The translations under genes and the position numbers were made by a program. From Gammaproteobacteria bacterium (GTDB taxonomy: Bacteria > Pseudomonadota > Gammaproteobacteria > GCA-001735895), in the NCBI GenBank assembly GCA_024638385.1, contig JAHEKJ010000001.1, positions 23,838-87,837 on the forward strand: a DNA stretch of 64,000 nt, in the 5' to 3' direction. Below the pieces are notes generated by a model. The model was not told the origin of the DNA, made no database searches, and worked only from the letters and a program-made list of their open reading frames with translations. Positions 22,958-29,142 of the stretch are shown here, one piece after another; within the stretch, counting starts at the first letter, position 1, and each line of letters begins with the position of its first letter.

Positions 22958-24214
22958 ATGAATCTGAATGATCTGAAGCAAAACACCGTTCCCGAATTGA
23001 TCGACACCTTGAAGGATATGGGGGGCGACCACTCGGCGCGAATGCGCCGCCAGGACATCATCTTCAGCATCTTGAAGGCGCAGGCCAAGAAGGGCGAAGA
23101 CATCTTCAGCGAGGGCGTGCTGGAAATCCTGCAGGACGGCTTCGGTTTCCTGCGCTCGGCCGACAGCTCTTACCTCGCCGGGCCCGACGATATCTACGTG
23201 TCGCCGAGCCAGATCCGGCGCTTCAACCTGCGCACCGGGGATACGATCAGCGGCAAGATCCGCCCGCCGAAGGACAACGAGCGTTATTTCGCGCTGCTCA
23301 AGGTCGACGAAATCAACTTCGACCTGCCGGAGAACGTCAAGCACAAGGTCCTGTTCGAAAACCTGACGCCGCTGCACCCCAATGAACGGCTCGAACTCGA
23401 ACGCGGCAACGGCAGCACCGAGGACATCACCGCGCGTATCATCGACCTGGTGTCGCCGATCGGCAAGGGCCAGCGCGGCCTGGTCGTGTCGCCGCCGAAG
23501 GCCGGTAAGACCCTGATGCTGCAAAACATCGCGCAGAGTATCGCCAGCAACCACCCCGAGTGCTACCTGATCGTGCTGCTGATCGACGAGCGGCCGGAAG
23601 AGGTCACCGAGATGGAGCGCATGGTCAAGGGCGAGGTCGTCGCGTCGACCTTCGACGAGCCGGCCAGCCGCCACGTGCAGGTCGCCGAGATGGTCATCGA
23701 GAAGGCCAAGCGCCTGGTCGAGCACAAGCGCGACGTCGTCATCCTGCTCGACTCGATCACGCGCCTCGCGCGCGCCTACAACACGACGATCCCGTCGTCG
23801 GGCAAGGTTCTGACCGGCGGCGTCGATGCGCACGCGCTGCACCGGCCGAAGCGTTTCTTCGGCGCCGCGCGCAACATCGAGGAGGGCGGCAGCCTGACGA
23901 TTCTCGCGACCGCGCTGGTCGAGACCGGTTCGAAGATGGACGAGGTCATCTACGAGGAATTCAAGGGCACCGGCAACATGGAAATCCACCTCGATCGCCG
24001 CATCGCCGAGAAGCGCGTGTTCCCGGCGATCAACATCAACCGCTCCGGCACCCGCCGCGAGGAGCTCCTGCTCGACCAGGAAGAGCTGCAAAAGGTCTGG
24101 ATCCTGCGCAAGTTCCTGCATTCGATGGACGAGATCGAAGCGATGGAGTTCGTCCTCGGCCGCATGCAGTCGAGCAAGACCAACCTCGAATTCTTCGACC
24201 AGATGAAGAAGTAG
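22958..24214 (+). CDS. rho: Transcription termination factor Rho
   Basis: [47 protein letters not shown]. Confidence 0.99.
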
Positions 24215-24316
24215 GCGGGGCCGTCGTCCCGCCGTCGCCGGCAACGTCGACTACAGAATTATCCCGCCGCGCCGGCATTCGGTTAATTCCGAATCCCTCG
24301 CTTCCGTATCGCGCAT

Positions 24317-24350
24317 AAAAAACCGGCACCCTCGCTCCCGGGGATGCCGG
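24317..24350 (-). terminator. Intrinsic terminator of the GNPH-repeat gene
   Basis: Minus strand ccggcatccccgggagcgagggtgccgg followed by tttttt, about 20 nt after the stop. Confidence 0.7.
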
Positions 24351-24370
24351 AACCCTGAAACAAACTGCGA

Positions 24371-24661
24371 CTAGTTCGAGCTCGCTACCGTCAGCGGCGC
24401 GATTTCGAAGCCGGCGTGCGGGTTGGCCTGCGTCTTCGCGACGCGCAAGACCTTGAACTCGATGCCTTCGTGAGGGTTGCCGCGGTAGCGTTCGACATAA
24501 CGCGTGGTCGTCGTAGTCGCGTCGAGGTGCGGATTGCCCTGGAAGCGCGCGACCTGGGCCGTGGCTTCAGTCGGATCCAGGTGCGGATTGCCTTGCGCCA
24601 ATGCCTGGCCGGTGGTCAGGGTGACGACTGCTGCGATTGTGATCAGGTTTGCGATTTTCAT
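24371..24661 (-). CDS. Small secreted protein with four GNPH-type repeats, unknown function
   Basis: AGAGGAG RBS, Sec signal MKIANLITIAAVVTLTTGQALA, repeats QGNPH/QGNPH/RGNPH/QANPH at 18-19 aa period, own terminator. Confidence 0.85.
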   Translation of the reverse strand: MKIANLITIAAVVTLTTGQALAQGNPHLDPTEATAQVARFQGNPHLDATTTTTRYVERYRGNPHEGIEFKVLRVAKTQANPHAGFEIAPLTVASSN

Positions 24662-24932
24662 GGTTTGCTCCTCTTTGCCTGTTCGGGTGCGTTTCGTAGC
24701 GCTTCGATGTCGATCGAATTTCCGGCTGCGATGACGCGGTCCATTCGAGCAGATAGCGTCGGAAAAATGATCGCCGCGCGGCGATGCTCTCGCGACTTTT
24801 TTACGACGAAAATATCGAGAGCAAAAAAAACTATAAATATCAGCGATTTACTGCTGAGGTTGCCGGCGCCGCGATTTTCTTGGGGGGCGCAGTGGGTATA
24901 TACTGGCGCCAGCGACGGGAAACCCGAACATC

Positions 24933-27125
24933 ATGGAGCAGCGTTTACCTGCGATCGAGGATTTGACCGACACCACCTGGGTGATTGCGGGCTGGTCGGT
25001 TCACCCCGCAACGCTGCGGATCGACAACGGTGACCGGAACGTCAAACTCGAGCCCAAGGTCATGGCGGTGCTCGAGTATCTTCTGCAACACCCGGGCCAG
25101 GTCGTCAGCCGGCAAGACCTCGAGGCAGCCGTCTGGACCGGCACCGTGGTCGGTTACGACGCGATCAGCAACGCGATCATCAAGCTGCGCAAGGCCTTCG
25201 GCGACGATGCGCAGAACCCGCAGGTAATCGAAACCATTCCCAAGGCCGGCTATCGCCTGATCGCGCCGGTGGATCGCCCGACCAGGGACGATCCGGAAAC
25301 TCCGCGCGAGGAACCGGGGCCGGCGGCCGGCGACATGGTCGGGGGCCAGCCCGCGGCGACCGAAGCGCAACCTTCCACATCCCGAAACCGGCTTGCCGCG
25401 GCGATACTACTGCCGGCGGCTTTACTGGGGCTGGTCGCACTGGTCTGGTTCGAGCCCTGGGCGCCCGAAGTCGAGGCCGCCGTACCGGAGCGCATGGCTT
25501 ATACGCTGCCGGACAAGCCGTCGATCGCGGTGCTGCCATTCGTCAATATCAGCGCCGATCCCGCGCAGGAATACTTCGTCGACGGCATGACCGAGGATCT
25601 GATCACCGACCTGTCGAAGCTATCGGGGCTGTTCGTCGTCGCGCGCAACTCGGTCTTCACCTACAAGGGCAGGGCGGTCAAGATCGGCCGCGTCGCCGAG
25701 GAACTCGGCGTGCGCTACGTGCTAGAGGGTAGCGTGCGCCGCGTCGGTGACGACGTGCGCATCAACGCGCAGCTCATCGACGCGTTGAGCGGCGGCCACG
25801 TCTGGGCCGAGCGTTACGATGGTGAATTGGGAGACATTTTTACGCTGCAAGATCAGATTACTCGCAACATAGTGAGCGAACTTGCCTCGAGTCTCGATAT
25901 CGACGAGGGTTTGGCTGCGCTTGCTCCGCCGTTGGTCAATGCCGAGGCCTACGATCTTTATCTGAAAGGCTGGGGATACTATCGCGCCGGCAGTCCCGAG
26001 GATTACGGCAAGGCGGTGGATCTCTATCAACGCGCCCTGGATATCGACCCGGACTTCGCGCGCGCCCGCGCGGCGCTGGCCGCGGTTCTGGTGGATATGC
26101 ATCAGAAACGCTGGTGGCAGGAGAGCCTGGGTATTATCGAATACGATTCCTTCGAGCGCGCTCGACAGGCACTGAAACGGTCGCGAGAGTTGCCGACGGC
26201 GTTGACTCACCAGGCCGCCTCCGAATGGTACGCCTTCTATGACGGTAGCTCGAAGCGAGCGCTCGAAGAAGCCGAGCAGGCGATCGAAAACAATCCGAAC
26301 GATCCGGCGGGGCACCTGGCAATGGCTTATGCGCTGCTCAAGGACGGTCGGGCAGTCGAGGCCGAAAGGCCGATGCGCACGGCGATGCGGCTCGATCCGC
26401 ACTATCCGCCGAAATTTCTTTATCGCCTCGGGCAGATCCAGTTTCATCTCAAACGATATGACTCGGCGGTCGAGTCGCTGGAACAAGCGATCGCGCGCAA
26501 CCCGAACGACGACTGGATGCTGCTGTACCTGGCGGCCAGCTACGGCAAACTGGAGCAGAAGGAGAAGGGTCTCGAAGCGCTCGCGCGCGCCAACGAACTA
26601 CGCGCGAAACAGGGCTGGGGGCCGGTTACCCAACTCGCAATATCTCATCAGTATTTCGGCTGGCGAGGCGATCTCCGTGAATTGAAGGATGGCTTGCGAG
26701 CGATCGACACGCCGTCCGGCGGCGAGTGGTACCGCCTGATTTCGCAACAAACAGACTTCGAACCACCACGCGTCGACGGGGCGACGACCATCGACATGCG
26801 CGAAGCCCGGGCCATGCAGGAACGCGGCGTTTTGTTTATCGACACCAGCTTAAAATGGATCCAGGAGCGGATTCCGGGTTCCGTTTTTCTCGAACTCTGG
26901 AAAGGAGAAGGATACCGGTTCAATGAAAACGCATTGCGCCAGTACGCCGACTTCGATGACGAAATCGTAATTTATAGTTCGAGTGGGCAAGACCGGCGTG
27001 TTGGCAGAGAAGCAGCGATGGGAGCGGCCATTGCAATAGCGGGGGGATTCAAAAATATTTTCTACTTTCCGGGAGGGCTGGATGCCTGGAAAGAGGCCGG
27101 TTACCCGGTTGAGCGCCCCGAATAA
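24933..27125 (+). CDS. Membrane-anchored ToxR/CadC-like regulator: winged helix - TM - TolB-N-like - TPR - rhodanese-like
   Basis: LEPKVMAVL..L..HPGQVVSRQDL...VW, I.KLRKAFGD...IETIPKAGYRL; TM AAILLPAALLGLVALVWF; SIAVLPFVNIS, DGMTEDLITDLS, YVLEGSVRR; TPR helices; C-terminal RIPGS...YFPGGLDAWKEAGYPV. Confidence 0.88.
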   Translation: MEQRLPAIEDLTDTTWVIAGWSVHPATLRIDNGDRNVKLEPKVMAVLEYLLQHPGQVVSRQDLEAAVWTGTVVGYDAISNAIIKLRKAFGDDAQNPQVIETIPKAGYRLIAPVDRPTRDDPETPREEPGPAAGDMVGGQPAATEAQPSTSRNRLAAAILLPAALLGLVALVWFEPWAPEVEAAVPERMAYTLPDKPSIAVLPFVNISADPAQEYFVDGMTEDLITDLSKLSGLFVVARNSVFTYKGRAVKIGRVAEELGVRYVLEGSVRRVGDDVRINAQLIDALSGGHVWAERYDGELGDIFTLQDQITRNIVSELASSLDIDEGLAALAPPLVNAEAYDLYLKGWGYYRAGSPEDYGKAVDLYQRALDIDPDFARARAALAAVLVDMHQKRWWQESLGIIEYDSFERARQALKRSRELPTALTHQAASEWYAFYDGSSKRALEEAEQAIENNPNDPAGHLAMAYALLKDGRAVEAERPMRTAMRLDPHYPPKFLYRLGQIQFHLKRYDSAVESLEQAIARNPNDDWMLLYLAASYGKLEQKEKGLEALARANELRAKQGWGPVTQLAISHQYFGWRGDLRELKDGLRAIDTPSGGEWYRLISQQTDFEPPRVDGATTIDMREARAMQERGVLFIDTSLKWIQERIPGSVFLELWKGEGYRFNENALRQYADFDDEIVIYSSSGQDRRVGREAAMGAAIAIAGGFKNIFYFPGGLDAWKEAGYPVERPE

Positions 27126-27662: not shown

Positions 27663-27743
27663 GGGGACAGTTTACCTGATTACCGTAATTTCGCCCCGTT
27701 TTGGTGCATAGTTAGGGTAATCAGGTAAACTGTCCCCCTAATT
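27657..27743. repeat. Palindromic REP/MITE-like element, copy 2
   Basis: Perfect 28-bp arms aattagggggacagtttacctgattacc / ggtaatcaggtaaactgtccccctaatt around a TGGTGCATAGTT core. Confidence 0.88.
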
Positions 27744-28672
27744 CAGGTGCGCAGGAGTTGGCGGCGGATGTGCGCCATCGGCGCGGCGTCGTCGTAGATC
27801 ACGCGATTGCCGTCGTAGGTCACACCGAGCTGGCGCCAGAGCGCGTCGAGGTCGACCGGGTACGGGTCGGCCTTCATTTTCTGATACAGCGGCACCAGCA
27901 CGTCGACGCCGGTCGCGCGGTCGCCGGCTTCGAAGACTTCCATCGCGCTCGCGCTCGCGTGCATCGACAGGCCGGCGTCGAGCACGCCGCGCAGCGCGTC
28001 GCGCAGGCTCTTGTCGTTGTCGGTCAGCCGGCGGATCTCGACGTCGGCGAGCAGGCAGAAGATCGCGCCGCCCCAGTAGGTCCGGCCCCAGGTCGGCGTG
28101 CGGTCGAGCCCGCGATCGCCGCTCTGCGGCAAGCCCTGCGGCATGCGCTCGATGAAATTGCGCCAGATGAAATCCTCGCTAAGATACTCGCGCTGCGCGC
28201 GGGCGATCGATTCGACGTAGGTCGCGAGCCCCTCGAGTAGCCAGCGATGCGCGTAGGGCACATCTGCCATCGCGAGGTGCACCATTTCGTGCACCAGAAT
28301 CCAGTCGCGGCGCAGCATTTCTGGCGTTACGTTCTCGCCGACAACGATGCGTAGCCTCGGTTTCGAGCCGCCGAAAGCCTGGCCGAAGCGGACCGCGCGG
28401 CCGCCGCTGACCTGCAGATCGATGTCGACCGTGCGCACCGGGAAGCGGCCGTAATACTGGATCACGGTCTCGGTGGAATAGACGACCCAGTCGAGCAGGA
28501 TGTCGCGCTTCTCGCGCAGCACGCGGTCCCTGATTCGTACCTCGATGCGGCTGCCGCCGAGCTCCATGGCATAGCGGTCGTCGTCGATCGCCTCGATAGC
28601 GGGCGCGGCGGAAAGCGAACTGACGGGCAACAGGCTGCAGAGCGCGAGCAGCAGGGAAGGAAGACGCAACAC
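27743..28672 (-). CDS. Secreted gluzincin-like metallopeptidase (putative)
   Basis: Signal peptide; LVHEMVH followed by WLLEGLATY (HExxH...E pattern). Confidence 0.7.
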   Translation of the reverse strand: MLRLPSLLLALCSLLPVSSLSAAPAIEAIDDDRYAMELGGSRIEVRIRDRVLREKRDILLDWVVYSTETVIQYYGRFPVRTVDIDLQVSGGRAVRFGQAFGGSKPRLRIVVGENVTPEMLRRDWILVHEMVHLAMADVPYAHRWLLEGLATYVESIARAQREYLSEDFIWRNFIERMPQGLPQSGDRGLDRTPTWGRTYWGGAIFCLLADVEIRRLTDNDKSLRDALRGVLDAGLSMHASASAMEVFEAGDRATGVDVLVPLYQKMKADPYPVDLDALWRQLGVTYDGNRVIYDDAAPMAHIRRQLLRT

Positions 28673-28728: not shown

Positions 28729-29142
28729 TCATTCGCCCGGCTCCTGCGCGACGTGCGGCGCGACGAGACCGGCGTCGTACCACGGGGCCCGGTCGCGCCA
28801 GAAGATGTTGTCGTCCGGTGCGCGCCCGGGATCGTCGGCGAGGCTGCCGGCCGGCACGATCAGGCGGCCGCTCTTGAGGCTCGTGTACGGCACCAGCGAG
28901 CCGCAATGGCGACAGAAGCACTTCGAGATCATGTCGGGCTCGTCGGGCGTGAAACGCTGGACCAGGTCTTCGCCGGCGAGCCAGCGCAGCCGGTCCGGCG
29001 CGGTGAACAGGTTGGCCGCGTGCGCCGAGCCGGTCGAACGACGACATTGGCTGCAGTGGCACAGGTGAAATCGGTCGAACGGGCCGCTGACCTCGTACTG
29101 CACGCGGCCGCACAGGCAGCCGCCGCGGAGTGGTTTGCTCAT
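28729..29142 (-). CDS. GFA/CENP-V family zinc protein
   Basis: GGCLCGRV.Y, CHCSQCRR.TGS, FCRHCGS. Confidence 0.92.
   Translation of the reverse strand: MSKPLRGGCLCGRVQYEVSGPFDRFHLCHCSQCRRSTGSAHAANLFTAPDRLRWLAGEDLVQRFTPDEPDMISKCFCRHCGSLVPYTSLKSGRLIVPAGSLADDPGRAPDDNIFWRDRAPWYDAGLVAPHVAQEPGE

Follow-up and report, generated by a model that had tools for sequence, protein, structure and literature searches.

The 64,000-nucleotide stretch analyzed here, below called the window, belongs to contig JAHEKJ010000001.1 of the gammaproteobacterial assembly GCA_024638385.1 (GTDB lineage GCA-001735895). Next to rho it holds a gene for a small secreted protein built from repeats of the motif G-N-P-H, and this GNPH gene lies head-to-head with the gene of a putative membrane-bound regulator, the two sharing one divergent control region. 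An earlier sequence-only reading had proposed the pair as a peptide-sensing system. Its description of the locus holds: open reading frames (ORFs), Pfam and hydropathy confirm the 271-bp divergent region and the 730-amino-acid (aa) protein with a winged helix-turn-helix (wHTH) domain, one transmembrane (TM) helix, tetratricopeptide repeats (TPRs) and a rhodanese-like domain. On the opposite strand we found the ORF of the 96-aa repeat protein, its GAGGAG ribosome-binding site and a hairpin with a U-run, and the signal peptide was recognized by inspection. In window coordinates the locus comprises:

24371-24661, reverse strand: GNPH-repeat pre-protein gene, 96 aa; ATG-started ORF of 96 codons
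24662-24932, no strand assigned: divergent intergenic region, 271 bp between the start codons, shared by the GNPH gene and the regulator gene
24933-27125, forward strand: putative CadC/ToxR-class membrane regulator gene, 730 aa; ORF, Pfam, NCBIfam, sequence and fold matches
24316-24350, reverse strand: terminator-like hairpin (24323-24350) with U-run (24316-24321), between the small gene and convergent rho
22958-24214, convergent with the GNPH gene: rho, the upstream gene; Pfam Rho_RNA_bind, E 3.2e-34

The GNPH gene and the regulator gene are paired

GNPH matches were found at 15 distinct loci, of which 8 are informative, meaning that they include the GNPH gene's 5' end together with ~400 nt or more of upstream sequence; 5 are too short to tell and 2 are remnants. 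The co-occurrence on which the sequence-only reading depended is borne out, as the start of a divergent wHTH gene lies head-to-head with the GNPH gene in all eight informative loci (the window, G021 (L002/L003), L004, L005, L006, L007, L011 and L012) and in several genomic contexts. While the small gene has rho as its neighbor in the window, L007, L010, L011 and L013, the neighbors are others in G021, L012/L014 and L015. Compared with the window, these non-rho loci encode small proteins of 39-42% identity and regulators of 32-35% identity. The conserved pairing is not chance.

The regulator resembles CadC and ToxR

25035-25259, forward strand: wHTH DNA-binding domain, residues 35-109, predicted cytoplasmic; Pfam Trans_reg_C PF00486, E 1.6e-16
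25383-25448, forward strand: single TM helix, residues ~151-172; hydropathy peak and AlphaFold2 (AF2) model, basic residues before and acidic residues after
25500-26609, forward strand: predicted periplasmic sensor, alpha/beta subdomain (~190-320) and TPR array (~337-559); fold matches and Pfam TPR
26805-27098, forward strand: rhodanese-like domain, residues 625-722; Pfam PF00581, 30.9 bits (cut-off 22.2)

The DNA-binding domain of the regulator matches that of CadC (5ju7) with E 1.5e-14 and that of ToxR with E 1.8e-10, and Foldseek superimposes it on the ToxR and CadC DNA-binding domains with a TMt of 0.83-0.86 (CadC 0.85). The NCBIfam CadC model covers residues 15-422 (E 2.8e-26). Only one hydropathy peak exceeds 1.6, in the 19-residue windows starting at 152-159 (segment ~152-177), and the AF2 model (mean pLDDT 86.6) places a helix at 151-172. 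We infer that the N-terminus lies inside, because the wHTH must reach the DNA. Pfam detected no Response_reg domain. With its OmpR/PhoB-type wHTH, a single TM helix ahead of a C-terminal sensor (predicted topology) and neither a receiver nor a kinase partner, the protein is, as judged from sequence and model, a ToxR/CadC-class transmembrane one-component regulator.

Fold comparison supports the same assignment for the sensor. Its best matches in the protein data bank are the CadC periplasmic domain entries 3LY8, 3LY9, 3LYA and 3LY7 (E 2.8e-10 to 1.3e-9, TMt 0.59-0.61, 325-333 columns), led by 3LY8 with E 2.8e-10, TMt 0.59 and 15% identity over 333 columns. The ToxR/CadC type named in the sequence-only reading is supported by both the DNA-binding domain and the sensor fold. 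The part which that reading labeled TolB-N-like matches nothing significantly in Pfam (FlgO, E 0.066, falls below the cut-off); by fold it is the alpha/beta subdomain of a CadC-type periplasmic domain. Several Pfam TPR families match between residues ~355 and 560. Judged by the modeled fold, the TolB-N-like and TPR parts together make up a CadC-type sensor whose helical array is extended.

Since the regulator contains no cysteine at all, the rhodanese-like domain has no catalytic Cys in its active-site loop, the residue that defines a rhodanese sulfurtransferase. The corresponding column varies among homologues, with Cys in only 1 of the 41 aligned sequences that have the domain.

The GNPH protein belongs to a rare family

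24596-24661, reverse strand: predicted signal peptide, residues 1-22; K2, hydrophobic core, A-L-A followed by Q23, by inspection

The GNPH gene is preceded, a few bases upstream of its start, by the ribosome-binding site GAGGAG, of which GAGGA is kept in all seven aligned GNPH loci. The N-terminus of the product looks like a signal peptide, with a predicted cut after A-L-A22 (by inspection), and aligned homologues show the same layout, stopping just ahead of QGNPH. The small protein has no Cys and so is not a lipoprotein. Its predicted mature part (residues 23-96) begins with QGNPH, as it does throughout a 20-sequence alignment. Four [GA]NPH motifs follow one another at a spacing of 18-19 residues: GNPH at 24-27, 42-45 and 61-64, and ANPH at 79-82. 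Among the 20 aligned homologues G, N and P are invariant in all four motifs and H nearly so, while the linkers vary; one homologue and one locus have a fifth repeat. AF2 returned no confident fold (pLDDT 51.1, pTM 0.21). In the ESM Atlas the recognition value was below the useful range, the nearest clusters were unnamed, and PcoE, at 0.85, remained under the lead threshold. The hairpin downstream of the gene has an unexceptional energy of -22.8 kcal/mol (z = -1.57, equalled by 18 of 200 shuffled sequences). A simple terminator scan did not pick it up, presumably on account of an inner bulge and a loop that depart from the pattern of the scan.

No Pfam or NCBIfam model matches the small protein. 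Among 5.77 billion protein clusters we found 14 homologues, and among 1.84 billion representatives a profile picked out 15 matches, two of them giant proteins that match over short repeats and another two 41-aa forms. GNPH matches occur in 2 of 41 relatives (reference genomes) and in 3 of 79 family genomes (a number that includes the window's own genome and a remnant), and a pattern scan of 185,579 species with one genome each added a single further locus. Nearly all the members found come from a single uncultured genus or from metagenome contigs related to it. As far as these searches tell, the small protein represents a new, undescribed and extremely rare family. The literature searched contains neither the term 'GNPH motif' nor a paper on the GNPH/regulator pair, in accordance with the earlier impression that the pair had not been described.

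One of the 41-aa forms, P0021, consists of a signal peptide and a single GNPH repeat fused to the conserved C-terminal tail, with a predicted mature product of 18 aa. P0019 (2224 aa, 16 short matches) was rejected as a relative and taken as a chance match, as its 'YDGNPHEP' lies in the long repeats of a giant surface protein. We likewise discarded the self-cleaving GDPH motif as an analogy. According to PMC10880436 (section 2.4), a GDPH-to-GNPH mutation blocks cleavage in a VWD domain. NPTH autocleavage belongs to another fold (FlhB/YscU). The small protein carries G-N-P-H in a short repeat and has neither a VWD nor an FlhB/YscU-type domain.

Conserved blocks lie in the shared control region

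24694-24748, no strand assigned: box ending TTGCAG (24726-24748) and inverted CTGCAA (24694-24699); candidate GNPH promoter/operator
24791-24818, no strand assigned: central conserved block, TCG words ~11-12 bp apart between A/T runs; candidate wHTH binding site
24899-24907, forward strand: TATACTG box, -10-like, ~26 bp before the regulator ATG; candidate regulator promoter

Aligning the intergenic regions of seven loci gave a mean column identity of 67%, at loci whose small proteins are 49-58% identical. Several blocks recur, in part, at the distant loci L012 and L003. This includes a relative of the central TCG block, a candidate site at which the wHTH would bind. The TTGCAG and CTGCAA elements lie 30-90 bp upstream of the small gene; CTGCAA stands downstream of TTGCAG at a distance, counted by hand from the alignments, of 26 nt (L007) or 36 nt (L012). 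We rejected by eye an interpretation of the TTGCAG box as a sigma-54 site, for which its GG and GC elements lie too near each other. The TATACTG core is invariant in 7 of 7 loci. At syntenic loci that lack the GNPH gene, TATACTG alone survives, in front of the short regulators of genomes G043 and G068 described below, and TTGCAG and the other boxes are absent, a pattern that fits separate promoters or operators for the regulator and the GNPH gene. Rfam gave 0 matches at E <= 1 for positions 24200-25000. The conserved blocks fit a relation between a regulator and its target.

Decay of the pair in other genomes

Three genomes (G043, G065 and G068; loci L054, L055, L056, L058 and L059 on G043:C9, G068:C30 and G065:C122) have a short wHTH gene right after rho, and neither a GNPH gene nor a remnant of one was found at this syntenic position. 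Read to their stops, the regulators of G043 and G068 have 326 and 310 aa and consist of wHTH, TM helix and alpha/beta subdomain, without TPR or rhodanese part; the reading frame in G065 has 339 aa. Beyond the regulator the gene order was read in G043 and G068, where it follows that of the window: rho, regulator, UDG-family gene, a gene for a secreted ~300-aa protein, GFA gene and aminotransferase. The joint absence of GNPH gene and TPR part from the three genomes may reflect a single event.

Two GNPH copies in decay provide a second view. At L014 a deletion took out the intergenic region together with the regulator's front part and one half of the small gene, leaving half a GNPH gene joined to the C-terminal part of an L012-type regulator (L014:2748-3439). 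The other copy, a remnant at L018:1441-1644, has its third motif interrupted by an in-frame TGA. What genome G058 keeps is a stop-interrupted C-terminal GNPH remnant with no regulator adjoining. The remnants at L014 and in G058 show joint decay of the pair.

The sensor occurs in a large family with varying outputs and partners

The regulator belongs to a huge family, with 6727 proteins at E <= 1e-20 among 8000 scored candidates. Among the best 120 homologues, ~40 are full-length wHTH forms and many others carry an adenylate cyclase domain (PF00211). The same ectodomain of TM helix, TolB_N-like part, TPR array and, in some cases, rhodanese-like domain is found on receptor-type class III adenylate cyclases (NCBIfam TIGR04510-like, annotated by JGI as 'TolB-like protein/adenylate cyclase'), which differ from the regulator in having a cyclase instead of a wHTH as output; TIGR04510 reaches only 52.3 bits against a 400-bit cut-off. 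Cyclase-fused forms from G006, G055, G020, G004 and G060, all genomes of the genus, are 43-46% identical over residues ~140-727, and no GNPH match was found in these five genomes. For locus L022, Pfam confirms Guanylate_cyc, TPR and Rhodanese. In the main text of a survey of transmembrane regulators (PMC10269533), TPR, TolB and rhodanese do not appear.

The sensor family is strongly expanded in the genus. The window's own genome has 9 further regulator matches at E <= 1e-5 on 8 contigs (among them C193, C223, C80, C214, C70, C15 and C134). Five of these, whose starts were read, begin like class III adenylate cyclases, and the match on C223 has a wHTH. Other genomes of the genus hold up to 18 matches (G046). 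In a quick regulator tree of 37 rows, for 4 of which the GNPH linkage is known, L003, L012, L030 and L047 sit on long branches.

We also read the upstream regions at 13 other wHTH-paralogue loci. Five are head-to-head with another small signal-peptide family, marked by the motif YxQ..LFSP...GRIMIYDG; one faces a secreted ankyrin protein and one a lipoprotein-like PEGA protein. The partner varies and the layout is constant, a pattern more readily explained by a regulator with its target next door than by one with a dedicated ligand. YxQ..LFSP proteins have ~95-120 aa and their partners are wHTH-TM-TolB_N-like-TPR paralogues of the same genus; three of them were run against Pfam and gave no match. 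Their genes are:

L029:3552-3857, forward strand: YxQ..LFSP gene
L030:989-1312, reverse strand: YxQ..LFSP gene
L049:1063-1350, reverse strand: YxQ..LFSP gene
L050:417-779, forward strand: YxQ..LFSP gene
L057:417-779, forward strand: YxQ..LFSP gene

Neighboring genes

On its other side, the regulator of the window adjoins a UDG-family gene. Further genes noted in the vicinity and at other GNPH loci are:

27743-28672, reverse strand: 309-aa protein with signal-peptide-like start and HEMVH motif (zinc-protease-like by eye), no Pfam match; position conserved in G043 and G068
28729-29142, reverse strand: GFA-family gene (PF04828)
L012:3601-4017, reverse strand: GFA-family gene (PF04828)
L014:2258-2674, reverse strand: GFA-family gene (PF04828)

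The GFA gene lies three genes from the regulator in the window and directly adjoins it in the unrelated L012/L014 context; this may be coincidence.

A proposed regulator and target pair

The regulator shares with Escherichia coli CadC the wHTH subtype, the single TM helix and a periplasmic fold of alpha/beta subdomain and helical bundle, and, as with CadC and its target cadBA, the neighboring gene is the likely target. It differs from CadC proper in reaching no more than 92.5 bits where the equivalog model NF007540 requires 400, in its longer TPR array and extra rhodanese-like domain, and in its neighbors, which are the GNPH gene and the UDG-family gene instead of cadBA. CadC has a periplasmic disulfide (PMC3096576); since the regulator has no cysteine, such a bond cannot exist here.

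We lean towards the reading, to which we give a slightly better than even chance, that this CadC/ToxR-class one-component regulator controls the divergent GNPH gene as its target through the conserved sites in the shared control region. The regulator would keep its wHTH in the cytoplasm and cross the membrane once, so that the CadC-like sensor, made of the alpha/beta subdomain, the TPR array and the inactive rhodanese-like domain, would face the periplasm. Upon an envelope or periplasmic cue it would bind the conserved blocks of the 271-bp region, switch transcription of the GNPH gene and probably tune its own promoter. The product would be exported by Sec and cut after Ala22, and the mature protein of ~74 aa, with little predicted fixed structure, may act as a small periplasmic effector whose four histidine-bearing GNPH turns would be the functional sites. 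Binding at the blocks, the direction of control, the cue and the role of the GNPH protein are all parts that we infer.

Several observations weigh against this proposal. The window's copy of the TTGCAG box is the most divergent of the seven aligned loci, and a sigma-70 scan found no promoter-like site within 24662-24932, the only site found falling outside. At L011 the GNPH gene is intact and the regulator is internally deleted and frame-shifted, with 251 aa left (L011:226-981, reverse strand; residues 1-161 and 646-730 match in different frames), so the small gene can persist, at least briefly, without a whole regulator; the L011 small protein is also encoded on contig L010. The adjacency count covers the neighborhoods of only a minority of the ~40 full-length regulator homologues. 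The longest contigs recorded for P0012 and P0038 (16873), for P0004 and P0057 (13435) and for P0008 and P0033 (4121) agree in length, a hint that the two proteins of each set may be co-located. A pH- or metal-responsive role of the histidine turns is our likeliest guess for the GNPH motif, and it is drawn from composition.

The sequence-only reading went further and suggested that the secreted repeat protein, or fragments released from it, could be both target and ligand of the regulator, in a feedback loop closed by binding to the periplasmic TPR array. The target half of this claim fits the conserved intergenic blocks, whereas the ligand half found no support, and we regard the loop as unlikely. 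TPR grooves usually bind extended peptides, and CadC reportedly undergoes feedback inhibition by cadaverine, which its target operon produces. In the TM-bearing forms the GNPH protein and the TPR part are both predicted to be periplasmic, the small protein lacks a confident fold, P0021 would yield an 18-aa product, and the GNPH gene is gone from the three genomes in which the regulator is short, without TPR or rhodanese part in G043 and G068 and with a frame of 339 aa in G065. Against the loop, the regulator paired with GNPH at L012 lacks a TM segment (peak 19-residue hydropathy 1.05 vs 2.0-2.8 in the others), so that its TPR part would be cytoplasmic though its partner keeps the signal peptide; an ectodomain of the same type, 43-46% identical, serves cyclases in five genomes with no GNPH match; the GNPH-linked regulators of L012 and L003 have no rhodanese-like domain; and the co-absence in three genomes may count as one event. 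When the ectodomain (186-730, 43-row alignment) was modeled as a complex with mature GNPH protein (23-96, 20-row alignment), two runs without controls scored 0.00, which speaks neither for nor against binding. Quite unlikely, too, is the more specific version in which the GNPH protein is a multi-repeat precursor whose repeats, whole or as ~18-aa peptides, are read by the TPR ectodomain as a periplasmic autoinduction loop of a Gram-negative bacterium; if it were true, the GNPH-type and YxQ..LFSP-type pairs would be receptor/pro-peptide cassettes. The comparison with the RRNPP receptors of Firmicutes (Rap, NprR, PlcR, PrgX) survives as an analogy only. These join a TPR array to a DNA-binding domain and have a small exported peptide precursor encoded alongside, but they are cytoplasmic, use an XRE-type HTH or a phosphatase and respond to a re-imported processed peptide. 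The HTH of the regulator is of the OmpR/CadC type and its TPR part lies beyond the TM helix, in the predicted periplasm, and Pfam, NCBIfam, sequence and fold searches with the regulator returned no RRNPP match.

The GNPH protein could instead stabilize or gate the regulator, as ToxS does for ToxR and VtrC for VtrA. According to PMC9214523, membrane-bound wHTH regulators often have a neighbor-encoded small periplasmic partner, and ToxR/ToxS and VtrA/VtrC resemble our locus in that the regulator stands beside a small, fast-evolving, unannotated periplasmic protein. The strict adjacency of the two genes and the joint absence of GNPH gene and TPR part in three genomes would fit such a co-sensor. 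Partners of the ToxRS, VtrAC and PsaEF type are, however, described in the same source as co-transcribed, often with overlapping ORFs, membrane-tethered and lipocalin-like, and those of ToxR and VtrA form the ligand-binding heterodimer. The GNPH gene is divergent, its start 271 bp from that of the regulator gene on the other strand, and it has a control region of its own; its product is repeat-built, has a signal peptide that looks cleavable, is probably soluble after cleavage and has no confident predicted fold. Together with the TM-less regulator of L012, these differences make a co-sensor very unlikely in our judgment. That the genes have no functional link and are neighbors merely by descent within one lineage is hardly credible. 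Members of the family are seldom found outside a single uncultured genus and metagenome contigs related to it, and five loci have common rho synteny, yet the pair recurs in at least three other neighborhoods at 32-42% protein identity, intergenic blocks are conserved across these, and remnants show both genes decaying together. The rest of the probability we assign to none of these readings.

ToxR/CadC-class transmembrane regulators are understood from a handful of enteric examples. The regulator described here would belong to a large, poorly studied branch with wHTH or cyclase output, a TPR-extended CadC-like sensor and often an inactive rhodanese-like domain, a branch that is repeatedly head-to-head with very small exported proteins of unrelated, unannotated families, of which GNPH is one. 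Feedback of the small protein on the sensor would, if real, amount to a new form of Gram-negative peptide signaling, a reading that the evidence does not favor. Through the pair, a new family of periplasmic proteins could be defined by its invariant G-N-P-H motif, and the two genes with their 271-bp region form a compact, testable cassette for finding what such sensors detect.

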